Positions 2 to 31,600 of a stretch of 64,000 nucleotides of DNA are shown here, in pieces; positions within the stretch are counted from its first letter, which is position 1, and each line of letters starts with the position of its first letter. Below the pieces are notes generated by a model. The model had not been told where the DNA came from. It saw only the letters and a list, made by a program, of their open reading frames with translations, and did no database searches. A program made the position numbers and the translations under genes. Source of the stretch: a virus (Duplodnaviria; Caudoviricetes). The stretch spans positions 28,998 through 92,997 of the IMG/VR virus record IMGVR_UViG_3300035520_000781. One strand, 5' to 3'.

Positions 2-679
2 GTTACAAATGGTGGTTATTTCAAAGGAGCAACAATAAGAGATAAATCTGATATTGACATTAAATGCAGAGTTAGACCATGGCAATCTCATGATATTGAA
101 TATTGGGAATCTTATGGAATATCCTTAAAGTGGCTTAAATATGCTGATGTCTATCCTATATCACATAAAATAGTGGTTAAAAATGGCATTAATTATATTT
201 ATGGTGCTGATAAATATGCATATGTATATGTAGAATTTAAAGAAGGTAAAACTACTTTAAAGGTCTATCAACCATTTAATACTAAAGGATTCAAGTGGGC
301 AAACAGACATGATAAGTCTGTTATAAGTCTATGGACTAAAGTTCCTAAAAGTGGAGACAGAGTGTGCATATGTTCTTCACTTAAAGATGCTTTATGTTTA
401 TGGGCTAATACTGGTATTCCTTCACTTGCTATTCAAGGTGAAGGATATGGAATGAGTAATACAGCAATTAATGAACTGAAAAGGCGCTTCAATAGAGTCT
501 ATATTTTATTAGATAATGACCCTCCTGGTCTTGAAGATGCTAAAAATCTTGCTTCAAAAACTGGGTTTATTAATGTTGTATTACCTCCATTTAATGAAGG
601 AAAAGATATTTCAGACCTATATCATTCCCTTCATGATAAAAACAAATTTAAAGAATTAATATTAGGTCTGTTTAACTAA
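2..679 (+). CDS. DNA primase, C-terminal TOPRIM part (5'-truncated by window edge)
   Basis: Frame is open from position 2 (VTNGGYF...), upstream of the called ORF start at 173. TOPRIM-like motifs ICSSLKDAL, ILLDNDPPG and KDISD match crAss-like primases. Confidence 0.85.
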   Translation, partial: VTNGGYFKGATIRDKSDIDIKCRVRPWQSHDIEYWESYGISLKWLKYADVYPISHKIVVKNGINYIYGADKYAYVYVEFKEGKTTLKVYQPFNTKGFKWANRHDKSVISLWTKVPKSGDRVCICSSLKDALCLWANTGIPSLAIQGEGYGMSNTAINELKRRFNRVYILLDNDPPGLEDAKNLASKTGFINVVLPPFNEGKDISDLYHSLHDKNKFKELILGLFN

Positions 680-693
680 CAAAATTTATACAA

Positions 694-1356
694 ATGGAAT
701 CTCGTAAAATCACAATTGTGTCAACAAAGACTCAAAAGAAAAGTGTAATTAACTCAAGTGCAGAAACTCTTGCTGAATTGAAGGCTGACCTTACAGCAGC
801 AGGTATTGACTATACTGATATGACCTTCTATGAAGGAACTTCAAAGACTGAACTGAAGACAGATGAGTCAATTCTTCCTAAAGATGTTCCTTATACCAAT
901 AGGACTACTGGTGAAACTATTATCACTAATGAACTTGTGTTTATGTTGACTAATACTAACAAAAAGATTAAATCCGGTATGAATACTGAGCGTCAAAGAG
1001 CTTATGAGTTTATTAAAGAGCATGACCTGCAAAAGGCTTGCTTGATTAAGTATGGTAAGAACTATACTCAATGCTCTACTGATTTTCTTAATGTACTTAT
1101 CTCTGAGTATATCGAAGCTAATAAGGCACCAGAAGGTTCTTCTCTTGCATCTAATTGTTTCCAGGGTGTAGATGCAAAAGCTCGAGAGGCTATTGCTATT
1201 CTTGTAGATGAACTTTATGATAATGGTGATATTATTGGCAGCACCCTGCATAAAGTAAAGAATCTTTTGAATTACCATACTGAAGGTTCTGACCGCGATA
1301 TTGATTCATCCTATAGTGATGATGAAATTAGCAAAATGTTTGAAAATATACTTTAA
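694..1356 (+). CDS. Putative ubiquitin-like (beta-grasp) protein with C-terminal extension
   Basis: Residues 1-95 show a beta-beta-alpha-beta pattern (KITIVST..SVINS..TLAELKADL..GIDY..MTFYEG..LP..LVFML) ending in KKIKSG95, followed by a helical and acidic tail. Directly upstream of the E2-like, JAB and E1 genes. Confidence 0.6.
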   Translation: MESRKITIVSTKTQKKSVINSSAETLAELKADLTAAGIDYTDMTFYEGTSKTELKTDESILPKDVPYTNRTTGETIITNELVFMLTNTNKKIKSGMNTERQRAYEFIKEHDLQKACLIKYGKNYTQCSTDFLNVLISEYIEANKAPEGSSLASNCFQGVDAKAREAIAILVDELYDNGDIIGSTLHKVKNLLNYHTEGSDRDIDSSYSDDEISKMFENIL

Positions 1357-1365
1357 TTAATTATC

Positions 1366-1404
1366 AGGGAAGAGGGAAATTAACACCCTCTTCCCTATTT
1401 TTTT
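1366..1404 (+). terminator. Rho-independent terminator after the Ubl gene
   Basis: Perfect 11-bp stem AGGGAAGAGGG / CCCTCTTCCCT followed by ATTTTTTT. Confidence 0.85.
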
Positions 1405-1414
1405 AATTGTTATT

Positions 1415-2437
1415 ATGGAACCAGAAAAAACTCCAGTAGATAAAGTTTATGATATATTTAGGAATTTCTATGGAGAAGAGTTTGTAGATAGAAAACCTAT
1501 AGTATGTGGGGAATATATAATAGTCTATTTCCCAAATATTACAGTAACTAATGAAAATAATAAATCCATAGATATTACAAAAGCGTTTGTTAGGGTAAAA
1601 GTTATTAATACAGGAGAAATTGGCGGTTCTATAGAAATGATTAGAACTGAATATACTTCTTCTCAATTTAACTCGGGATATTGTTTTTCCCACAGGCCAT
1701 CTGTATGTGCATCTAATTATACACAATGGAGAGAATGTTGCCTTGGCACAGGCCCAATAAGAGATACTATAATCTCCCTAAGTCATGCTCCTTCTGAAGA
1801 AATTTGGGAATTATTTTGTTATGAATTATCTAAATATGTAACAGTAGAATCTATTGACGGAACTCCTTATATGTATTTAGAAAGAGTAGGTAATGCAAAT
1901 GCATCTAATCAAGTTTCTTTCCCAATAACTAGAAAAGAAGATATGAGTATTAATTTCTTTAATGAGGATAATAGAAATATACTAAGAAAATTCCTACCTT
2001 ATATAATAAAATTAAGACCATTTAAATTTAATTTCAATAGAGGAAGTTATAGCATAGCTATGTCTTCTTTTGAAATAACTATCACATTAAGTAACTTATT
2101 TATTCAATGGTATAATTCTCTTCCTCAGGAAGACAGAATTCCAATAGAAAAGTTATTATCTAATTTAACAATAAGAAAGGCCTTCTTAAATCAATATGGC
2201 AATCTATTTTATGTTTCTGATAGAGACTCTGTTATTAGTTATGAAGATTTAAATAGACCAATTCTAACTTTTAAAGGTACAGAGTATAAGTTACATATAA
2301 TAGAAGATTCTCAAAGTAACTTCATCAATGTTCTTGATGAATATATAGTATTTTATATTGTTAATACAATTTTAACCGCAGTAAATTATGGACCAAACAC
2401 TTCCAATCCAACTTGTGAAGACATCTACTTCATTTGA
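1415..2437 (+). CDS. Putative E2/UBC-like conjugating enzyme (prokaryotic E2 type) with C-terminal extension
   Basis: Beta-rich N-terminus, then FSH93...CC109LGTG followed by a helix (WELF..EL..Y), resembling the E2 H...CLG active-site layout. Sits between the Ubl and JAB genes. Confidence 0.55.
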   Translation: MEPEKTPVDKVYDIFRNFYGEEFVDRKPIVCGEYIIVYFPNITVTNENNKSIDITKAFVRVKVINTGEIGGSIEMIRTEYTSSQFNSGYCFSHRPSVCASNYTQWRECCLGTGPIRDTIISLSHAPSEEIWELFCYELSKYVTVESIDGTPYMYLERVGNANASNQVSFPITRKEDMSINFFNEDNRNILRKFLPYIIKLRPFKFNFNRGSYSIAMSSFEITITLSNLFIQWYNSLPQEDRIPIEKLLSNLTIRKAFLNQYGNLFYVSDRDSVISYEDLNRPILTFKGTEYKLHIIEDSQSNFINVLDEYIVFYIVNTILTAVNYGPNTSNPTCEDIYFI

Positions 2438-3527
2438 TTTAATTATCCCGAGCTCAGTAGAAAGTAAAATAAGGCATCTCTGTAATAAAATATCTCAAGT
2501 AGAGTGGTCTGGTACTTTATTTTATAATTACTCAGGCTCTTATGAAAAAGGAGATTTGAAAATTACTTGTGTAGATATATTTCCTATGGATATTGGTTCT
2601 CAGGCTTATACAGAGTTTGATATGTCGCCTGATGTAATATCCTATATGACAGATAATAATCTAATTGATTGCCAATTGGGATTAATTCATTCCCATAATA
2701 GTATGGCAACTTTCTTTTCTCAGACGGACTTAAACACTCTTAGAGATGAAGGAAAGGATAGAAATCACTTTGTATCTCTCATTGTAAATAATGAAGGTAC
2801 TTATACTGCTGCTATTACAAGAAAGATTAAAGGAAAGAAAAAGGAAATACTTGATTTTACTTATAACACTTTTAATGATGAATTAAAACACAGTAAAAGT
2901 AATAATGAAGTAGACTGTGAGGTTATTCAGTATTCAATGCTTAATATTATCAAACAAGGAGCATCTCAATTTGATGATATTGATGCAAGACTTGCTGAAA
3001 TTAAGAAGGCTAAAGCTGAAAAGGCACAGAAGATAGAAGCAGTTAGAAACATTAATCCCAATTATCTTGGTATAGAGCCTATTAAGAATAAAGACATGGG
3101 ATTATTTAATCCTAATTTATTTCCAAAATCTCCATTTAATGAAAAGAATACATTCTATAAAGAAAAGGATTTCTTTAAAGATAGTGACATTACTGTGGAT
3201 GCTAAGGATGTAAAAGCTCTTGCAATGCAACTTATTACTGGCTCAATTGTAATTACTGAAAGTAATAATATTGATATGAATAATTGGGCAGCTCAGAGAA
3301 TGGTTCCTCTATTTGATAAGAGATTTAATAAAGATATGCTGTTCTTTGAAAATTGGGTAGAGATGTTTGTAGAATTTCTTCTTACCTATTCTGTACCCCA
3401 AGACTATGAAGTTATTGAAGAAAACTATATGAAAGATATGGCAGATGCAGTATATCTTACTCTAAATAAACTGCCTAAGAATGATTATTTGGAAATTATT
3501 AAAGAGAAACTACTATTATGGAATTAG
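2388..3527 (+). CDS. JAB/MPN+ (JAMM) metalloisopeptidase
   Basis: Complete JAMM motif E39...H101-S-H103-x7-S111-x2-D114 (EWSG...IHSHNSMATFFSQTD). Confidence 0.9.
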   Translation: MDQTLPIQLVKTSTSFDLIIPSSVESKIRHLCNKISQVEWSGTLFYNYSGSYEKGDLKITCVDIFPMDIGSQAYTEFDMSPDVISYMTDNNLIDCQLGLIHSHNSMATFFSQTDLNTLRDEGKDRNHFVSLIVNNEGTYTAAITRKIKGKKKEILDFTYNTFNDELKHSKSNNEVDCEVIQYSMLNIIKQGASQFDDIDARLAEIKKAKAEKAQKIEAVRNINPNYLGIEPIKNKDMGLFNPNLFPKSPFNEKNTFYKEKDFFKDSDITVDAKDVKALAMQLITGSIVITESNNIDMNNWAAQRMVPLFDKRFNKDMLFFENWVEMFVEFLLTYSVPQDYEVIEENYMKDMADAVYLTLNKLPKNDYLEIIKEKLLLWN

Positions 3528-4339
3528 AAGAAACAGGACTCTCCCAAGAAGAAGCAGAACTTCTTGAGAGAACTTTGGAAGAAGCACACAGTGAAACTAT
3601 TGATATTCCTCTTAATTCTAAGTCAGTTCTTATAGATGACTCTGTATCAAGGTTTAGTTCTGCAGAATGGTTTTCTAAAATTCAACAGCAAAGAGTTATA
3701 CTTGCAGGTCTTGGAGGGATAGGTAGTTATGTTGCCTTTCTCCTGAGTAGAATGAAAATAGCCCACTTAATGATGTATGATGACGATATAGTTGATGCTA
3801 CTAATATGTCAGGCCAATTATATGGGGTAAGTAGTATAGGAAAGCAAAAATGTCATGAATTAGGAAGCTTCCTTGTAGAATATTCCAGATTTTATAATTA
3901 CTGTATTTACAATAGAAAATATACTGGTCATTGTAATACAGCTAATATTATGATATGTGGCTTTGATAATATGGATGCAAGAAAGACATTCTATTATAAT
4001 TGGAGGGGGCACATAGGTACACTTTCACAAGGAGAAAGAGAAAATTGTTTATTCATAGATGGCAGACTTGCAGCAGAAGAATTTCAAGTTTTCTGTATTA
4101 AAGGAACTGACACATATTACATGGATAAATATGAGAAAGAATGGCTATTTTCTGATGAAGAAAGTGAACAAACTGTTTGTTCTTATAAACAAACCTCATT
4201 TTGTGCCAATATGATTGCCTCAGTGATGGTAAATTTATTTACTAATTTTGTTGCTAATCAATGTAATCCCCTTGTAGAAAGAGAACTACCCTTCTTTACC
4301 TATTATAATGCAGAAAGAATGCTACTAAAAACTGAATAA
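3518..4339 (+). CDS. E1/ThiF-family adenylyltransferase (Ubl-activating enzyme)
   Basis: SRF arginine, GLGGIGS nucleotide loop, DDDIVDATNMSGQ, GKQK, CGFDN..AR and IDGR. Candidate catalytic C221 lies in EQTVCSYK. Confidence 0.92.
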   Translation: MELEETGLSQEEAELLERTLEEAHSETIDIPLNSKSVLIDDSVSRFSSAEWFSKIQQQRVILAGLGGIGSYVAFLLSRMKIAHLMMYDDDIVDATNMSGQLYGVSSIGKQKCHELGSFLVEYSRFYNYCIYNRKYTGHCNTANIMICGFDNMDARKTFYYNWRGHIGTLSQGERENCLFIDGRLAAEEFQVFCIKGTDTYYMDKYEKEWLFSDEESEQTVCSYKQTSFCANMIASVMVNLFTNFVANQCNPLVERELPFFTYYNAERMLLKTE

Positions 4340-4341
4340 TT

Positions 4342-5103
4342 ATGGCATTAGATGTATATCTTAAAAAGTATTTATATAATCCTTCTGGTTATTGCCCTAA
4401 TGTTCCACTACTTCCATGTTATGAACATCATAATGTCTTTAATAGGTTTTTAAGTATTATGGCCAGTAAAGAAGATGAAATATTTATCCCAGTAATAAAT
4501 AAGTATGCCTTCTTTAATAAGATATACCAAGGATTGATTGAAAAAAATAAAGAAACTATTACTATCGCTTGCCCACTTCCCATTACTGGTTCAGGGGAGA
4601 AATGTACAGGAACCAGTATTATTGAATATCTATTAAAAACAAGAGTTAATAAAGGCCTCACTGAAGTTACTACAAAAAGAGGAGACGTATTTTATGGAGG
4701 TGCTGGAATTTTACTTAATAGTCGTAAAGATATTTTAATAATATTTGGATATACAAGTAAAATAGTAAATAATAAAATTAAATTAACTGGAATAAAGGGA
4801 TATATATCTCCATTGGTATTTTTAAGTAATGATATAGTATGCAAAGCAATTATTAAAAATGTTATTCCTTGTGTATCTACTAATCTTATAGCCACTCATA
4901 AAAGTAATTTCCCTTATGGAAAATATGATGCAGATGAAATAGGCACTTATGAAACTCCCAAGCTATTAATTCAAGACTTATCTTATTTAACTTCAAGTCC
5001 TATTGTTCCTAATAACTATCCAGTTAATTTTACAGATAGAAATGCTAAAATATGGGATTTTATAGATAACTATAATATTCCTGAAAAATTCTTGGAGATT
5101 TAA
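4342..5103 (+). CDS. Hypothetical protein, last gene of the E2-JAB-E1 run
   Basis: 253-aa ORF starting 2 nt after the E1 stop. No recognised motif. Confidence 0.75.
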   Translation: MALDVYLKKYLYNPSGYCPNVPLLPCYEHHNVFNRFLSIMASKEDEIFIPVINKYAFFNKIYQGLIEKNKETITIACPLPITGSGEKCTGTSIIEYLLKTRVNKGLTEVTTKRGDVFYGGAGILLNSRKDILIIFGYTSKIVNNKIKLTGIKGYISPLVFLSNDIVCKAIIKNVIPCVSTNLIATHKSNFPYGKYDADEIGTYETPKLLIQDLSYLTSSPIVPNNYPVNFTDRNAKIWDFIDNYNIPEKFLEI

Positions 5104-5124
5104 ATTTTTATTATTATCTTTGCA
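5091..5124 (+). promoter_or_regulatory. Bacteroidota sigma70-type promoter
   Basis: CTTG-N20-TATCTTTG(CA), matching the -33 TTTG / -7 TAnnTTTG consensus. Confidence 0.7.
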
Positions 5125-5148
5125 CAGTAACTTTTAATTTTAATAATT

Positions 5149-5634
5149 ATGAATCATATTAAAGTAATTGATTTGACACCAGTTAAATTGGATGTTGAAA
5201 CCCTTATGGCTAAACTTGATGCAGTTATTGATTCTTATATGAAAGAATCTGCTACTAAAGAAAAGTTTAGGAAAAGAGAAAAAAATGTTGAAATTCCCTC
5301 TGACCTTACTTATTATTTCAAGAAAGTCGCAGATAAGAAAGGATGGTCAGTAGAAAGAGTAGATAGATGGCTTGGTAATATTGCAGATGTTCATCCTATG
5401 GCAGCTATCAATATTATACTTAAAGAAATTGCTGTAGAGCTGGATAAAAAATATACCGACCACATTAGTAATAGTAAAGACATTTTCTGCATTAGTTCTA
5501 TTAATGGTGAAATCTGCAAACTTGATAAGTCAAAGATTAAAAGTTATAAGCACTTTGCAGCATTTAGAACATTTGCAGATGCTAATATAGCATTTAATAT
5601 GCTTGCCACTCCTCTTAAATCTATGTTTAAATGA
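5149..5634 (+). CDS. Hypothetical protein
   Basis: 161-aa ORF downstream of a promoter, with ATGA overlap to the next gene. Confidence 0.8.
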   Translation: MNHIKVIDLTPVKLDVETLMAKLDAVIDSYMKESATKEKFRKREKNVEIPSDLTYYFKKVADKKGWSVERVDRWLGNIADVHPMAAINIILKEIAVELDKKYTDHISNSKDIFCISSINGEICKLDKSKIKSYKHFAAFRTFADANIAFNMLATPLKSMFK

Positions 5635-6077
5635 TAGAAAACAAGAAGATAAAAAATGCTACAGAGTGTGAATTAGACGGTATTAATTTTAGAAGTAAAC
5701 AAGAGAGGTCTATTTACAAGTATCTTTTATCTATTGGTATAACCCCTCAGTATGAATCTGAGAGATTTACAATATGGGACAGGGATAAATTCTCTGTCCC
5801 ATTTTATGATAGATATGGGAGAACTTTTAAAAGAATAGATAGAAAACCTACTTCAGTTCATTACACTCCTGATTTCATCTTTAATGTGGGTGATATAAAA
5901 GTTATTTTAGAAGTCAAGGGATTTAAGAATGATGCAGTTCCTTATAAAACAAGATTGTTCAGAGATTTACTTGAAAAGATTAAAGATAGCTCAGGAGAAA
6001 AGTTATGCTATGCAATAGTATATACTATCAAGGACTTAAAATTTTTATTAAATGATTTGCAAAATTCAAGAGAATAA
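5631..6077 (+). CDS. PD-(D/E)xK endonuclease (DUF1064 / T7 endonuclease I-like)
   Basis: FRSKQE...YTPDF...ILEVKG motifs. Confidence 0.85.
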   Translation: MIENKKIKNATECELDGINFRSKQERSIYKYLLSIGITPQYESERFTIWDRDKFSVPFYDRYGRTFKRIDRKPTSVHYTPDFIFNVGDIKVILEVKGFKNDAVPYKTRLFRDLLEKIKDSSGEKLCYAIVYTIKDLKFLLNDLQNSRE

Positions 6078-6393: not shown

Positions 6394-7428
6394 ATGAGAA
6401 AGAGTTTAAAAGAAATATCTTGGTTAGTAACAGAACTAGAGTATAGACAAGACCCCGCACTATCTTACTCTACATTAGCTAAATTTGAAAGAGAGGGGTT
6501 TGGAAGTCTTGATAAATTATTTGATAGAGTAGACACTCCTTCATTACAGTTTGGAAGTCTTGTAGATACTTTAATGACAGGTACTCAAGAAGAATTTGAT
6601 GAGCACTTTATGGTGGCTCAATTAGATAATAGTTTGTCTGATACTCTTATTACTATCACTAAAACTCTCTTTGAAAAGTGGAATACTGTTTATTCATCTG
6701 TTACAGATATTCCTGATGATTATCTTATTGAAACTATAAGTGAAATTCAGTGGAATAATCATTGGCAAGCTAAAACAAGAGCAAAGAAAATTAAAGAAGA
6801 TTGCTCGGGATATTATAAATTACTTTATTTGTCAAGAGGTAAAACTATTATAGATACATTCACCTATCAAGATGCTTTAAATTGTGTAGATAAACTTAAA
6901 TCTGCTCCATCAACAAGATTTTATTTTGAACAAGATAATGTCTTTGATGATAGTATTGAAAGACTATATCAATTGAAGTTTAAAGCTACTTTTGATAATG
7001 TAGATTATAGATGTATGGCAGACCTTTTGGTTGTACTACATGACAAGAAAGTTATAGTTCCAGTTGATTTAAAGACTAGTTATAAACAAGAATATGACTT
7101 CTATAAAAGCTTTGTAGAGTGGAGATATGATATACAAGCCAGACTTTATTGGAATATTATAAGAGCTAATTTAGACAAAGATGATTATTTTAAAGACTTT
7201 AAACTTGCAGATTATAGGTTTATAGTTATTAATAGAAAGTCTTTAAATCCACTTGTTTGGAACTTTGACAAGACACAAAGTTTAGAAGAAATTACTACAA
7301 AGAATAATACAATATTGAGGCATCCTTTTGAAATAGGAAAGCAGCTAAAAAGGTATCTTGAAGAAAAACCAGTAGTGCCTGATGGAATAGAACTAATTAA
7401 ACCCAATGAAATAAGTGATAAGATATGA
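6394..7428 (+). CDS. PD-(D/E)xK exonuclease (RecE/ExoVIII-like)
   Basis: LSYSTL, FGSLVD, RCMADLL..PVDLKTS and YDIQARLY motifs. Confidence 0.85.
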   Translation: MRKSLKEISWLVTELEYRQDPALSYSTLAKFEREGFGSLDKLFDRVDTPSLQFGSLVDTLMTGTQEEFDEHFMVAQLDNSLSDTLITITKTLFEKWNTVYSSVTDIPDDYLIETISEIQWNNHWQAKTRAKKIKEDCSGYYKLLYLSRGKTIIDTFTYQDALNCVDKLKSAPSTRFYFEQDNVFDDSIERLYQLKFKATFDNVDYRCMADLLVVLHDKKVIVPVDLKTSYKQEYDFYKSFVEWRYDIQARLYWNIIRANLDKDDYFKDFKLADYRFIVINRKSLNPLVWNFDKTQSLEEITTKNNTILRHPFEIGKQLKRYLEEKPVVPDGIELIKPNEISDKI

Positions 7429-9593
7429 AAGTATTAAAGAGAGATGGTTCAGTTGAAGATTTTAATCTTGAAAAAATTATTAATGCAGTTGTTTTAGCTT
7501 ATAAAGCCTGTGATAAGACTATTGATAGTGAAGTCTTAGGAGAGCTCAAGTATATTCACTCTGAGTTAAATAATACTGAAGTAAGTGTAGAAAATATTCA
7601 AACAGAAGTTATTAAAATTCTCATGGATTTGGCTCCTTATGATGTAGCACTTGCTTATATTCTTTATAGAGAAAAACATAAAGAAACAAGATTTATAAAA
7701 GAGAGACTGGACTATATGGAAAGATATGCCAATTCTACAGATAATGCAGCTTCTTCATCTGAAACTGATGCTAATTCTAATGTATCAATGAAGAATGTTG
7801 CAAATCTTGAAGGAGAGGTATATAAAACCACTAATAGAATTATTCAAAGGCAAAGAATGAAAGATGCTCTTAATAAGCTATTTCCTGAAGTTGCCAAACA
7901 ATATGAACAAGATTTAAATAACCATATTATATATACTCATGATGAGGCAAGCACTCCAGTATTGAAGCCTTATTGTATGGCTGCTACCCTTTATCCTCTT
8001 ATGCTTGAAGGTGTAGGAAATATTGATGGAGTGACCCCATCTGCACCGAATGATATTCAATCTTTTAGTGGTCAGGTAACTAATCTTGTATTTTTACTTT
8101 CATCTCAAGTTAAAGGAGCTGTAGCTCTTGGTGATTATTTCATTGCATTGAATTATTATGTAATTAAAGAGTTTGGACCAATATGGTATGAAAAGCTTAA
8201 TACAGTAGTTACTAATGAATATTTTACAGAAAGACATACTGTTGAGTATTTCATTAGAAAAGGTATGAAGCAATTCATTTATGGTGTAAATCAACCTGCT
8301 GGAAATAGAAGTTATAATTCTCCCTTCTCTAATATTTCTTACTATGACAAGGAATATTTTAAAGCATTGTTTGAAGAATTCTACTATCCTGATGGCACTA
8401 AACCTGAGTGGAAAGCAATAGATACTCTTCAAAGAATGTTTATGAAATTACACAGAGAACTTAGATTAATTAAGCCTCTTACCTTCCCTGTATCTACAAT
8501 TGCACTTGTACATAATAATAAAGAGTATCTTGATAAAGATTATAAAGAGTTATGTGCTGAAGAATGGGCTAAGGGGGGAAGTTTCTTTTGTTATACAAGT
8601 GATAATCCCACTTCATTAGCTTCGTGTTGCAGGGTCTTGAATGAAATTAAAGACAATACATTTAGTTCTACTACTGGAATGACAGGTGTTATGACAGGAA
8701 GCTGCAATGTAATTACTCTTAATATTAATAGAATTGTACAAAATTATTTTAGCTTCTTTCCTTCTGATTGTAATATAAATTGCTTCCTTTCAGATAAAAG
8801 TAATGGCTATCCTTTTTTAAAGAAATGGCTTACTGAAATTCTTGAAAGAGTTTATAAGTATCATATTGCCTATAAAACTATGCTGTATGACCTTGAAGAT
8901 AAAGGTATGTTGGCAGCATCTAATGCTGGATATATATATCTTAAGAAATTGTATAGCACAATAGGTATTATAGGTTATTGTGAAGCTGCTAAATTCTTAG
9001 GAATAGAAGTAAGTAATAATCAAGAGTATAAAGATTTCTTGAAGGTAATTCTTGGTACCATTAAAAAACAAAATAAGATACACTCTATTCAAGATAAGAA
9101 GAAGCCTATATTATTTAATAGTGAGGCCATTCCTGGAGAGAATTTAGCTGTTAAATTCTATGAATGGGATAAAGCTGAAGGATATGAAGTTCCTAAAGAC
9201 CAGAATTTATTTAACTGTTATTTCTATAATCCATGGGATGAAAATACTTCTATATTAGATAAACTTAAACTTCATGGAAAAGAAATATCAGAATTTACTG
9301 ATGGAGGCCAGGCAGCTCATGTAAACTTAGATACACATTTAAGTAAAGAGCAGTACCTTAAAATACTTGACATTGCAAAGGATTATAGTACTAACTACTT
9401 CACATTTAATATTCCAATGAGTGAATGTGCAGACTGTGGTAATGTAGTTAATGCACCTATTGAAGAGTGTCCTAAATGTAAATCTAAAAAGATTAAATAC
9501 TGGACAAGAATTATTGGGTATTTAACCTGTGTAAATAGTTGGTCTAATGCTAGACAGGTAGAACAAAAGAAGAGGGTTTATTCTCATGATTAA
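7425..9593 (+). CDS. nrdD: Anaerobic (class III) ribonucleoside-triphosphate reductase
   Basis: N-terminal ATP cone (KVLKRDG), SCCR and GSCNVITLN, C-terminal CxxC..CPxC zinc site and glycyl-radical loop RIIGY. Confidence 0.95.
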   Translation: MKVLKRDGSVEDFNLEKIINAVVLAYKACDKTIDSEVLGELKYIHSELNNTEVSVENIQTEVIKILMDLAPYDVALAYILYREKHKETRFIKERLDYMERYANSTDNAASSSETDANSNVSMKNVANLEGEVYKTTNRIIQRQRMKDALNKLFPEVAKQYEQDLNNHIIYTHDEASTPVLKPYCMAATLYPLMLEGVGNIDGVTPSAPNDIQSFSGQVTNLVFLLSSQVKGAVALGDYFIALNYYVIKEFGPIWYEKLNTVVTNEYFTERHTVEYFIRKGMKQFIYGVNQPAGNRSYNSPFSNISYYDKEYFKALFEEFYYPDGTKPEWKAIDTLQRMFMKLHRELRLIKPLTFPVSTIALVHNNKEYLDKDYKELCAEEWAKGGSFFCYTSDNPTSLASCCRVLNEIKDNTFSSTTGMTGVMTGSCNVITLNINRIVQNYFSFFPSDCNINCFLSDKSNGYPFLKKWLTEILERVYKYHIAYKTMLYDLEDKGMLAASNAGYIYLKKLYSTIGIIGYCEAAKFLGIEVSNNQEYKDFLKVILGTIKKQNKIHSIQDKKKPILFNSEAIPGENLAVKFYEWDKAEGYEVPKDQNLFNCYFYNPWDENTSILDKLKLHGKEISEFTDGGQAAHVNLDTHLSKEQYLKILDIAKDYSTNYFTFNIPMSECADCGNVVNAPIEECPKCKSKKIKYWTRIIGYLTCVNSWSNARQVEQKKRVYSHD

Positions 9594-28623: not shown

Positions 28624-31600
28624 TTAGATACAATCCATATATTCTTTTTGTTCCTTAGAAGTTAAATTATTCCAGTCTTTAATATTCCTAACTCCTCTTT
28701 CTCTTAAACTTCTTTTTTGCTTAGCAGTAAATTGAGTATAATCATAATTACTTGAAGTAGCTACTCTGGGAGGGGCACTTACTGGTTGACCATTTTCTAT
28801 GGGCTTTAACCTATCCAATTGTCCCAATAGAGGGTCTTCAAATGGCTTTCTTTCTATAACCTCAGTTTCAACACTTGTAGGTTTAGCTCCCCCAATTTCA
28901 TTTTCAATTACTGCCTTTTCTGCATCAGTTAATTTATTCCATCTAATGTTAAGTGGAGTATAAGGAAGAGGAACTTGCATATCAAGAGTAGTTTTATATA
29001 AAACAGGTGTAGCACCTTTAAATTCTACTCCATCTGCCATTAATTGATAATATCTTGGGTCATCCTGAGAAACTGTAGAATCTTCTTTTTTTGAATATTC
29101 TACTTTACCATATTTAGTACCTTTAGGGTCATCATATTTAACTGATATTGGAATAACTTTTAAATTTTCATCAGAAACATTTATTCCATATGATTGCATT
29201 AATAAATCTTTATATAAAGATACTTGCCTTGCCCATTTATCTCTCCTTTCTAATATTTTCTTAGTAGATAAGTTATGGACAGTTTTCATATCAAATATAT
29301 AAAAATTACCAGCAGCATCATATCCTAATAAGTCTATTGTTCCTGCAACTGGAATTTTATGTTTTTGTCCCTTATCGTCAGTTACTGTTACTTCTCCTTT
29401 AACAGTCATATTATTTGAGACAATATTTATTCCTGAAGCATCTAAAGAAGCTTTTAATTTTTCCAGCTGAGTTACAAAACTTTGAAGCTGTTCCTCCGTT
29501 GCATTTGGATACCTTTGAGCCAAGTTCTCTTTTGAGAAATTTCCTGCAAAAAAGTCTCTAACAAGCATATCAAACCCAGTTCCTATATTAGTTGATGGGG
29601 TTATCCATGAGGTATCTTCAAATGTTTCTCCATTCTCATCAGCTTGTATTATAGAAGTTACTCTTGCATACCTTTTTACAACTTTTGGCTCTTTTCCTGG
29701 CTCTGAATCATCTAATAATTCATAATACTTCTCGTCATCTGAAAGTCTTAATTTTTTAGAATCTTCTGCAATTTTCTTAGTAACTGCTTCAGCATTTTTA
29801 GCAGCAGGACTAGTTAGTGGAGCAGGGCTTCCTTCAAGAGTTGTTCCTGTTCCTGGGTCTACAAGAGCTCCATTTGATGTGGTTGCAGCTGGCCCTGATG
29901 TAGGTCTATCTCCTGAAGGACTTGAAGCATTGTCAGAGTTTGCAACAATAGGAGGAAAGTTTCTAGGCTCACCTTCATTGGTAAATGGGGACTCCATTCT
30001 AATAGCATAAGGCATATATTGTAAAGCATCTGCAGCTATATCAAATACTCCATCATCTACCCACATTTGCACTTCTGAAAGTGCCTTATCTTGTTTACCA
30101 GGAACTTTACCTTTTATTATATCTAGATTTACATAGTTAATTTGCCAAGTTAAAAAGTCTCTTACATTACCAGAACTATCTAATAAAAGATTTGATATAA
30201 ATTCTTTTCCAAAAGCTTTTGTATCTGTATTCTTTCCAATAGAACCTAATTGTATTTGTGGCTTACTTTCATTTACATTATCAAGAGTTATATTAAAAAC
30301 TATCTCTCCAGTAGATTGAGCTCTTTCTACATCAAATGTAACTTTAAAATCATATCCTGCATCTCCTTTAAGATAAACAAAGTCAGTTACTTTTCCTTTA
30401 AGAAATGCCTCTATTTTACTTGCTACATTATCAAATTCAGTACTATCAGCATTTAACTCAGGTATAAGTTGCTGAGCTTTTTCTAATACATCATAGTATA
30501 ATCTACTTGTTCTACTATTAAATTCAATAATGTCTTCAGGATTATTACTTTGGGCTGCTTGTTGAATAGATAAACCATTTACACCTGTAGTTTCGGCTAT
30601 AGACTTTCTAATAATAATACTTGGACTACCTCCACCATCTTTTAAATTATCGGGCTTATACCATAGTTCTAATTTACCATTCTTTTGATTTAATTGAGTA
30701 AATAATCCAGAAATAAAATTACCCCTTGCTCTTACATATGCAGGCTCTTTAATTCTCTGAAGATAGGGTAAAGCATTTAATCTTTGTTGCTCCTCTTTAG
30801 ATAGAGTCTCTATAATAAGTTGATGTACAGAACTATTGTTATTAACACCATTTTGCCTATTTTGGTCAGGATGATGTGCTCTAACAGCTCCCTTTTGGCC
30901 ATAAGCTCTTGTTGTAACAGGCTTTCCATCCTTATTTCTAACTAAATGAACTCCTTCATCATTAGAACTTAACTCTCTAACTGGAATCATCCTATTACTT
31001 CCCTGCATGGTGGCACCATTATTTGGCATTACCCCAATTGGTTGATACTTTTTACCTTCTATTTCTATTGGGCCATTCTCACTTTCAACTACTGCTATTA
31101 CAGGTTTCATGGAGTTTCTATATTTATCCCCCATTTCACTCATACAGAGCGTAGTTAACTCAGAGTCAGTGAAAAAGAATATTTCAGTATCATTACTAAA
31201 GCTATGACTTCTTATAAAATCTTCTATTCCATATTTATCATATAATTTAGTAACCCAGCTATCAGGATGGTTCTTTCTATAGTTTTCAATGTCTATTGTA
31301 GACATTGTTGCAGCATTGGCATTTGGGGGAGGGGTTTCCTTTTCAGCAGTATCTGTTGTAGGAGCAGTTCTTGAATTTGACCTAGTTAAATTAGTAACAA
31401 CCATTGATAATAATTTACTTACTGCTTCATTGTTATTATCATCAGCAGACAGTGACTTAATAGTATCACTAAGTTTAGAAATTTCATCTATAAAGTCATC
31501 TACTGTTTCAAAGTCATAAGTTTCAGAATTATCAAGAGTCATCAACTGCTTAATTGCTTCTTCTTTTATTTCTTGTGTAAAGCTACTGGCATTAATAATG

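Follow-up and report, generated by a model that had tools for sequence, protein, structure and literature searches.

A probable ubiquitin-like conjugation cascade encoded in the replication module of crAss001-like phages

A 64,000-nucleotide stretch of viral DNA (positions 28,998 to 92,997 of IMG/VR record IMGVR_UViG_3300035520_000781, which spans 92,997 bp and is 92% complete), hereafter termed the window, harbors close to its start four consecutive genes that probably encode a complete cascade for the conjugation of a ubiquitin-like protein (Ubl). An original prediction, made from the nucleotide sequence alone, had interpreted the genes at 694-4339 as a Ubl, an E2-like conjugating protein, a JAB peptidase and an E1-like activating enzyme located beside the primase gene of a crAss-like phage. 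The analysis presented here largely converges on the same interpretation: the cassette appears to be a phage-encoded Ubl conjugation cascade, similar in operation to the bacterial Bil systems and assembled from distinct, apparently phage-restricted protein families, a reading to which we assign a probability of about 0.7. All of its open reading frames (ORFs) were recovered, co-oriented on the + strand: ORF1, the Ubl precursor (694-1356, 220 aa); ORF2, the E2-like protein (1415..2437, 340 aa); ORF3, a putative JAMM/MPN+ metallopeptidase (2388..3527, 379 aa); and ORF4, an E1-like adenylating enzyme of the ThiF/MoeB/UBA superfamily (3518..4339, 273 aa), with the motifs of the four proteins lying at the codons where they had been predicted. 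ORF2 and ORF3 overlap by 50 nt (2388-2437) and ORF3 and ORF4 by 10 nt (3518-3527), which suggests that the E2, JAB and E1 genes are coupled in expression. The proteins of the window share 45-70% identity with their counterparts in Bacteroides phage crAss001 and related phages (Steigviridae), in agreement with the predicted crAss-like origin; a megablast search of the region against phage records returned no match, and relatives are detectable at the protein level only.

The cassette was compared across 83 loci, comprising 80 from IMG/VR and those of crAss001, bajarodcaudo virus 1 and Flavobacterium phage FpV4. The Ubl, E2-like, JAB and E1 genes occur in the same order and on the same strand in all 79 loci with enough flanking sequence, FpV4 included, and gaps are found at contig ends only, so that the four genes are indeed conserved together in relatives, as the original prediction required. 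The putative catalytic residues are likewise preserved among the roughly 76-80 homologs from these loci: H93 and C109 of the E2-like protein, C221 of the E1 and S94-G95 of the Ubl are kept in 100% of them, the five JAMM residues in 99% or more, and the E1 residues for nucleotide binding and catalysis in 99-100%. FpV4 retains every one of these residues at 27-37% identity, a degree of conservation that sets them apart from chance occurrences, and it retains the four genes, whereas no ORF5, ORF6 or resolvase can be detected in it any more. The E2-like gene was found in 74 of 50,697 phage records (45 crAss001-like and 29 Fipvunavirus), and the E1 gene is present in the same 74; five further records encode the E1 without the E2-like gene. 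In 185,579 GTDB species-representative genomes the E2-like family occurs six times, always on contigs of metagenome-assembled genomes, and the five of these contigs with enough flanking sequence show crAss-like gene order. Judging from this distribution, the E2-like family looks phage-restricted.

The structures of ORF1 and ORF2 were predicted with AlphaFold2 (AF2) from deep alignments, since sequence comparison assigned neither protein to a family; for ORF1, no family match was obtained with Pfam, NCBIfam, PADLOC or a phmmer search of PDB sequences. In the ORF1 model (mean predicted local distance difference test score, pLDDT, 88.9), residues 4-86 are predicted to fold as a beta-beta-alpha-beta...beta unit, followed by a lower-confidence tail up to G95 and by helices thereafter. 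When the N-terminal domain (residues 1 to about 91) was compared with known structures using VIA-align, all of the top 50 matches were ubiquitin-superfold domains (Z 5.8-7.3; root-mean-square deviation 2.1-3.0 A over 70-76 residues), including DIX, TINCR, ubiquitin, FAT10, UBX, ISG15, Atg12 and MoaD, and the beta-grasp fold proposed for this domain was thus borne out in the model. Foldseek searches of the PDB also returned ubiquitin-like domains with probability close to 1.0, yet with marginal E-values of 3e-3 or worse, and the fold assignments for both ORF1 and ORF2 therefore rest on VIA-align rather than on Foldseek. The predicted Ubl domain spans residues 1-95 (694..978, + strand) and ends in a flexible tail, K90-K91-I92-x-S94-G95, the last codon of which (976-978) would encode the mature C-terminus of the modifier. 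Homologs of ORF1 are abundant, numbering over 5,400 clusters when grouped at 90% identity and 791 representatives at 50%, and in 61 diverse representatives S94 and G95 are invariant and the K90-K91-I92-x-S94-G95 tail is essentially fixed. Directly after G95 the alignment passes into a gap-prone linker, and mean identity drops from 0.61 before this point to 0.28 after it. According to the model, ORF1 hence has the features of a beta-grasp modifier with an exposable C-terminal glycine.

The remainder of ORF1 (residues 96-220; 979..1356, + strand) consists of a variable linker, a helical module, an acidic, low-complexity stretch and a conserved tail, with helices predicted at residues 98-143 and 161-215. 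Its conserved positions are R100, Y104, G121 and T125, within a module of the form R100...G121-K-N-x-T..., and the terminal S-x-Y-S-D-x-E-I-x-x-M-F. By eye only, the pattern R100..Y104..L112..G121-K-N-x-T..C127..L132 resembles a helix-extended loop-helix of the SAP/Rho_N-like kind, and the acidic and hydrophobic end resembles SSB-type C-terminal interaction tails; Pfam finds nothing for either. In three homologs (P0351, P0356 and P0363) this extension contains the C-terminal domain of ribosomal protein L7/L12 (Pfam PF00542, E 1e-16 to 2e-10), an arrangement that recalls the ubiquitin-ribosomal protein fusions of eukaryotes.

The boundary at G95 coincides with a break that occurs naturally in some relatives. 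In three of the 79 loci (L021, L029 and L052) the Ubl gene stops two codons past S-G and the C-terminal domain is encoded by a separate gene. Directly after these two codons, L021 (3318-3860) and L029 (3486-4006) carry a free-standing HNH homing-endonuclease gene, past which the C-terminal domain continues as an ORF with its own ATG; in L052 (3710-3967) the split persists even though the endonuclease has decayed to a remnant of about 260 nt. Short forms of the Ubl were also found as 34 clusters in a large protein database, more than 20 of which are exactly 91 aa long and end in KKI[R/K]SG plus two residues, several being encoded on contigs of 92-101 kb. The notion that these 91-aa forms are simple stand-alone Ubl genes was rejected, because the loci show a homing-endonuclease gene splitting the fusion. 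A spliced intron at the split was set aside as well, given that Rfam detects none there in a search that does find group I introns at other places, that the insert in L029 contains just 46 nt of non-coding sequence, and that L052 retains only a remnant. As far as the sequence goes, a split gene is therefore the preferred reading, although an intron of atypical kind might also account for it. With the two halves persisting as genes in their own right, the Ubl and the C-terminal domain can evidently act as independent polypeptides, and the coincidence of the natural break with the invariant glycine and with the collapse in conservation fits cleavage after G95.

For ORF2, the model (pLDDT 88.9) shows the layout of a ubiquitin-conjugating (UBC) domain over residues 1 to approximately 160, with a helix, a four-stranded meander, a long loop and further helices, and places H93 and C109 (codon 1739-1741) on the loop that follows the beta-meander and precedes helix 2. 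A second domain, at about residues 184-325, may bind a target or a partner. Among the top 50 VIA-align matches of the N-terminal domain (Z 4.1-6.2), nearly every one is an E2, UEV or RWD domain, with BubB (9eav_D, Z 4.8), Cap2 (Z 4.3), Atg10 and UFC1 included. Homologs form at least 170 clusters, and in an alignment of 57 sequences extending down to 28% identity the invariant residues comprise N46, E47, Y89, S92, H93 and C109, together with G111, G113, P114, E137, E145 and S146. The conserved cysteine named in the original prediction accordingly holds up, C109 and H93 being invariant, and the predicted topology is UBC-like; the match to the UBC fold itself is moderate. A further indication of constraint comes from locus L090, in which the E2-like gene is interrupted by a group I intron (core 4995-5215, RF00028, 65.8 bits, E 6e-15; insert approximately 5001-6001) containing a 234-aa homing-endonuclease ORF on the reverse strand (5173-5877). 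The intron parts ...SDYMH from SHIHG..., breaking the gene at the codons of the invariant S92-H93. Homing introns typically target the most constrained sequence of important genes, and the insertion thus marks these codons as the most constrained part of the E2-like gene. Two size classes exist among the E2-like proteins: one of about 320-360 aa, to which that of the window belongs, and one of about 400-450 aa, represented by crAss001 Gp78 (L001:3067-4401). In the long forms some 70-100 aa are inserted after the N-terminal helix, ahead of the first beta-strand of the UBC-like domain. An ESM Atlas lead connecting ORF2 to Prok-E2_D (0.77) was not confirmed by a Pfam scan of 57 family members at E-values up to 1, in which no Prok-E2 family matched.

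ORF3 contains a complete JAMM motif (E39...H101-S-H103-x7-S111-x2-D114), as had been predicted, and the five residues of the presumptive zinc site are kept in FpV4 as in the other homologs; its sequence is thus that expected of a JAMM/MPN+ metallopeptidase. Besides the JAMM domain at approximately residues 10-150, ORF3 has a coiled-coil region and a helical C-terminal part that is conserved (approximately 170-379). Family matches are weak yet concordant (Pfam Prok-JAB, 5e-4, 20.3 bits against a cut-off of 25; PADLOC generic JAB, 7.5e-4), and the best PDB matches of the family profile are Pyrococcus furiosus JAMM1 (5lda, 0.012) and CSN5 (0.018), both aligned through the active site. In locus L086, a crAss-like contig, the JAB gene is likewise interrupted by a group I intron (core 7282-7500, RF00028, 66.3 bits, E 4e-15; insert approximately 7291-8445) with a 290-aa homing-endonuclease ORF on the reverse strand (7458-8330), and the break, between ...GLIH and (S)H..MSTFFSGTD, lies inside the codons of the JAMM HxH. 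Another group I intron was identified downstream in the replication module of L021 (9547-9790; RF00028, 84.8 bits, E 2.6e-20).

The E1-like protein is the component with the clearest family match, ORF4 reaching 54.3 bits with Pfam ThiF (1.3e-14; cut-off 28.1). Its motifs, G64-x-G66-G67-x-G69 and D88-x-D90-x-V92-x3-N96-x3-Q100, and the cysteine C221 (4178-4180) are as given in the original prediction, and G64, G66, G67, D88, D90, N96, Q100, K111, D150, R155 and C221 are all invariant in homologs. Its family profile retrieves MccB, UBA5, UBA6, UBA3, ThiF, Cap2 and MoeB from the PDB, and PADLOC gives E-values of about 1e-10 for Cap2 E1-E2 models and of 3.8e-6 (23.8 bits) for BilD. ORF4 is therefore predicted to be an adenylation domain of the ThiF/MoeB type, with an ATP loop and catalytic Asp and Arg residues. 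C221 is the only cysteine common to the E1 of the window, that of FpV4 and a homolog from a Xanthomonas jumbo phage, and is a candidate for the thioester cysteine. This last homolog, from Xanthomonas phage PhiXhv-15 (L084:5947-6630), matches the family hidden Markov model (HMM) with an E-value of 5e-23, keeps the equivalent of C221 and is encoded between ligase and topoisomerase genes. The 892-aa neighbor of this ThiF was considered as a fused E2-JAB and rejected, as it has no HMM match, JAMM motif or Pfam domain.

An intrinsic terminator- or attenuator-like hairpin with a U-run lies between the Ubl and E2 genes (1366..1404, + strand). It has an 11-bp stem (core GGGAAGAGGG/CCCTCTTCCC) and a 9-nt loop, with a folding free energy of -20.2 kcal/mol (z -4.3) that was equaled in 0 of 200 shuffled sequences; the consensus scan, limited to 8-nt loops, is blind to this 9-nt hairpin. 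Hairpins with a U-run and unrelated stems are found at the same junction in crAss001, bajarodcaudo virus and FpV4 (L001:3006-3066, L002:3372-3444 and L003:3522-3592; z -3.0 to -5.8). A hairpin and U-run after the Ubl gene suggest termination or attenuation at this point, through which the modifier would come to outnumber its enzymes.

From the computed folds, motifs, residue invariance, co-conservation, gene order and domain boundary at G95, we infer the following scheme, including every chemical step, the cutting of the precursor, the existence of a target and what the phage would gain. ORF1 would be synthesized as a pro-Ubl and, given the hairpin and U-run that follow its gene, probably at higher levels than the enzymes, and the ORF3 JAMM peptidase would cut after G95, exposing the glycine and releasing the helical C-terminal domain. 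ORF4 would then adenylate G95 with ATP and load the Ubl onto C221 as a thioester, from which it would move to C109 of ORF2 with the assistance of H93, and ORF2 would transfer it to a lysine of a phage or host target. The C-terminal domain of ORF2, ORF5 or both may choose this target, and the JAMM peptidase may also reverse the tagging. The location inside the replication module, which is marked by the primase gene upstream, suggests a role early or midway in infection. The roles named in the original prediction, namely tagging of replisome or defense proteins or countering of host Ubl-based immunity, are speculation. The proposal that the abundant crAss001-like gut phages and Flavobacterium Fipvunavirus phages use a cascade of their own for offensive or regulatory ends, attaching to host or phage proteins (replication, transcription or defense factors, for instance) a Ubl drawn from a bifunctional precursor whose other half is an effector, seems to us somewhat better supported than not.

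Several observations weigh against the interpretation of the cassette as a conjugation cascade. Non-catalytic UEV and RWD domains rank level with true E2s among the structural matches of ORF2 (BRISC UEV, Z 6.2; Tsg101, 5.5; GCN2 RWD, 5.0), and VIA-align warns that a Z below 8 can reflect a mere common arrangement, a value that the best match of ORF2 (Z 6.2) does not reach. Foldseek returned nothing significant from the PDB for the ORF2 model, and ORF2 has no match in Pfam, NCBIfam, PADLOC or PDB sequences, a family-profile search included. In view of the moderate Z scores and the non-significant Foldseek result, the assignment of the ORF2 N-terminal domain to a divergent UBC/E2-like fold is graded here as well supported but not certain. 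Alignments of ORF4 to solved E1 structures end near residue 158, short of C221, and no Ubl, E2 or JAB is detectable beside the E1 homolog of the Xanthomonas jumbo phage. The loci compared represent mostly one conserved replication module of related phages, so the co-conservation partly reflects shared ancestry, and FpV4 is the main independent data point. Neither an E3 nor a target was identified for the cascade. E1s of the ThiF/MoeB type that are accompanied by a Ubl and a JAB also serve sulfur-carrier pathways, which yield no protein conjugates.

Such a pathway would use the same parts in a different manner: the JAB-trimmed, E1-adenylated Ubl would be converted into a thiocarboxylate, as in ThiS/MoaD, CysO-Mec+ and QbsE-QbsD, for delivery of sulfur to a small molecule, a tRNA or phage DNA, and the cysteine of the E2-like protein would act as a persulfide relay or have another role. 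The best family models for ORF4 are ThiF equivalogs (PRK08644, 1.7e-16; thiF_fam2, 7.6e-15), both far under their cut-offs, the best sulfur-type equivalog reaching 60.5 bits against an NCBIfam cut-off of 159. MoaD is also among the structural matches of the Ubl (Z ~6), sets of Ubl, JAB and E1 genes for sulfur metabolism were described by Iyer et al. 2006 (PMC1779556), and host enzymes could supply the sulfur. However, sulfur-transfer partners, which the original prediction had found missing from the window, are absent from the whole 93-kb record, where no rhodanese, PP-loop thiolase (ATP_bind_3) or cysteine desulfurase (Aminotran_5) was found in searches whose controls gave matches, and the E1 itself has no rhodanese domain. 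The known pathways, moreover, need no E2-like protein, yet here one is strictly co-conserved and has an invariant Cys and His, and the Ubl ends in S-G instead of the G-G end typical of ThiS and MoaD. On this balance sulfur transfer is improbable as the function of the cassette. It also appears unlikely that the cassette is a precursor-processing module, in which the JAB would free the helical C-terminal domain as the true effector, possibly one that binds DNA or the replisome, the beta-grasp domain would serve as a solubility or timing tag as in the eukaryotic fusions of ubiquitin to ribosomal proteins, and the E1 and E2-like proteins would regulate the process or make a non-protein adduct of the MccB/PaaA type. 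This account gains from the conserved residues that the C-terminal domain has of its own, including the terminal SxYSDxEIxxMF, from the persistence of that domain as a separate gene once split off, from the L7/L12 domain added to the extension in some relatives and from MccB and PaaA being the top PDB matches of the E1. The MccB matches, though, are confined to the shared nucleotide-binding region (residues 53-124), and the invariance and strict co-inheritance of C221 in the E1 and of H93 and C109 in the E2-like protein are left unexplained. The split genes, furthermore, keep the Ubl half intact with its S-G end, which indicates that the Ubl itself has a function.

A further account retains conjugation and changes the part played by ORF2, which would be a non-catalytic adaptor of the UEV/RWD type, with the Ubl, E1 and JAB forming the core of an E2-independent conjugation resembling that of SAMP or Urm1. 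The level ranking of UEV and RWD domains with true E2s in the fold searches speaks for it, and archaeal SAMP conjugation needs only an E1. It is difficult to reconcile with the invariance of C109 and H93 in all sampled homologs, FpV4 included, on the loop where the active sites of E2s sit, or with the homing of a group I intron exactly into the S92-H93 codons, and we consider an adaptor role very improbable. The reading preferred here is thus a conjugation cascade in which ORF2 acts as the E2.

Among known systems, the cassette most resembles in layout the Bil (bacterial ISG15-like) operons (BilABCD, types I and II), which conjugate a Ubl as a defense against phages (Hör et al., 10.1101/2023.09.04.556158; Chambers et al., 10.1101/2023.09.26.559546; PMC11601603). 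Both consist of four separate genes, and the order Ubl, E2, JAB/JAMM and E1 is that of BilA-B-C-D (PMC11601603; 10.1101/2023.09.04.556158); both also share a conserved C-terminal glycine in the Ubl, sometimes with a short overhang, and a conserved cysteine in E1 and in E2. In contrast to Bil, the cassette is located in a phage replication module rather than in a bacterial defense island, and PADLOC detects no BilA, BilB or BilC and only a weak BilD (3.8e-6). The Ubl of the window has a single beta-grasp domain and a helical extension of about 125 aa, whereas type I BilA has two beta-grasp domains; the E2-like proteins, at 340-450 aa, are larger, have an additional C-terminal domain and show no sequence relationship to the Bil E2, and BilB is not among their nearest structures; and the coupled ORF5 is an addition of the cassette. 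Type II CBASS, in which anti-phage signaling is based on cyclic oligonucleotides, also combines E1, E2 and JAB activities, and Cap2 is matched both by ORF4, in PADLOC, and by ORF2, in structure, but the PADLOC matches of ORF4 are confined to the shared nucleotide-binding region. Cap2 is an E2-E1 fusion, whereas the E1 and E2 of the window are separate, and the modifier of CBASS is the C-terminus of the CD-NTase, whereas that of the window is a dedicated beta-grasp Ubl. No SMODS/CD-NTase gene was found in the genome, and this absence, together with the separate E1 and E2, excludes membership in the Cap2/Cap3 group. For PRTRC, the PRTRC_ThiF model scores 27 bits against an NCBIfam cut-off of 144.75, and no other PRTRC model matches ORF1-ORF5. 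The original prediction had named a set of E1, E2, JAB and Ubl as the signature of Bil, CBASS and PRTRC; the cassette shares the gene order of Bil, and the sequence models place it in none of the three.

Similarities were also noted with the Bub (bacterial ubiquitination-like, '6E'/DUF6527) operons and with the '6d' Ubl-JAB-E1-E2 operons of Iyer, Burroughs & Aravind 2006 (PMC1779556; PMC11601596). These are prokaryotic sets of Ubl, E2-like, E1-like and JAB proteins, often on mobile elements, and BubB is among the structural matches of ORF2, but the cassette has neither the Ubl-E2 or JAB-E1 fusions nor the DUF6527 protease. The TAPI/TAPK (JAB-NlpC/P60) pair of phages lambda and T1 provides another phage beta-grasp protein with a conserved glycine and a C-terminal domain predicted to be released by the JAB (PMC1779556); unlike the cassette, it involves no E1 or E2 and belongs to the tail rather than to the replication module, and no sequence relationship was detected. 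With the ThiS/MoaD-ThiF/MoeB systems the cassette shares the adenylase fold and motifs of the E1, a Gly-ended beta-grasp substrate and, in some cases, trimming by a JAB, and differs in having an E2-like protein, in lacking sulfur-relay genes and in missing the equivalog cut-offs by about 100 bits.

The first 5.1 kb of the window contain six ORFs, all co-oriented on the + strand. The cassette adjoins a primase gene, as the original prediction had proposed: the ORF at 2..679 (+ strand), which is cut by the start of the window, encodes the C-terminal (Toprim) part of a DnaG-type primase (Pfam Toprim_2, 2.6e-5; PHROG 12622 DNA primase, 5.6e-34) and is syntenic with the crAss001 Gp80 primase. Downstream, ORF5 (4342..5103, + strand, 253 aa) begins after a gap of 2 nt from the end of ORF4. 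It is tightly coupled to the E1 gene and present in 69-75 of the 83 loci, though not detectable in FpV4, and may be an accessory component of the cascade. Its Y118-G119-x-x-G122 motif is invariant and G120 nearly so; no match was obtained in Pfam, NCBIfam, PHROG, PADLOC or the PDB, a family-profile search of the PDB included, and scanning 20 family members against Pfam at E-values up to 1 did not bear out an ESM Atlas lead to DUF169/GGGtGRT (0.93, 194 shared features). In public records the E1 mostly goes under the wrong label 'thiamine biosynthesis protein', and on one occasion under 'E1 enzyme family protein'; for the JAB the labels are 'hypothetical protein' and 'metalloprotease domain containing protein', and the Ubl and E2 genes are labeled 'hypothetical' in all 74 phage records.

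To our knowledge, Ubl conjugation in bacteria has been demonstrated only recently, and only as anti-phage defense (Bil, CBASS Cap2/3) or in operons of unclear role (Bub). No published description of a Ubl cassette in crAss-like phages or Crassvirales was found, although coverage of subscription journals was incomplete and a prior report is therefore possible. What appears new is that machinery of the Bil/Bub type is encoded by a virus and comprises a new family of E2s and a Ubl precursor with two functions. If the interpretation is correct, this would be the first complete virus-encoded system of E1, E2, Ubl and deubiquitinase in prokaryotes and a mirror image of host Bil immunity, built on a family of E2s that is not known to occur outside phages. 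As none of the known E2s is related to it in sequence, this family would widen the diversity of UBC-fold enzymes. The proposal is amenable to experiment, since crAss001, DAC15/DAC17 and FpV phages are cultured with their hosts and the small size of all four proteins brings reconstitution in vitro within reach. Manipulation of ubiquitin is known from many viruses of eukaryotes; a complete cascade fixed in a widespread lineage of gut phages, and conserved from phages of the human gut to Flavobacterium phages of fish pathogens, would mean that the viruses of bacteria use protein tagging as well.

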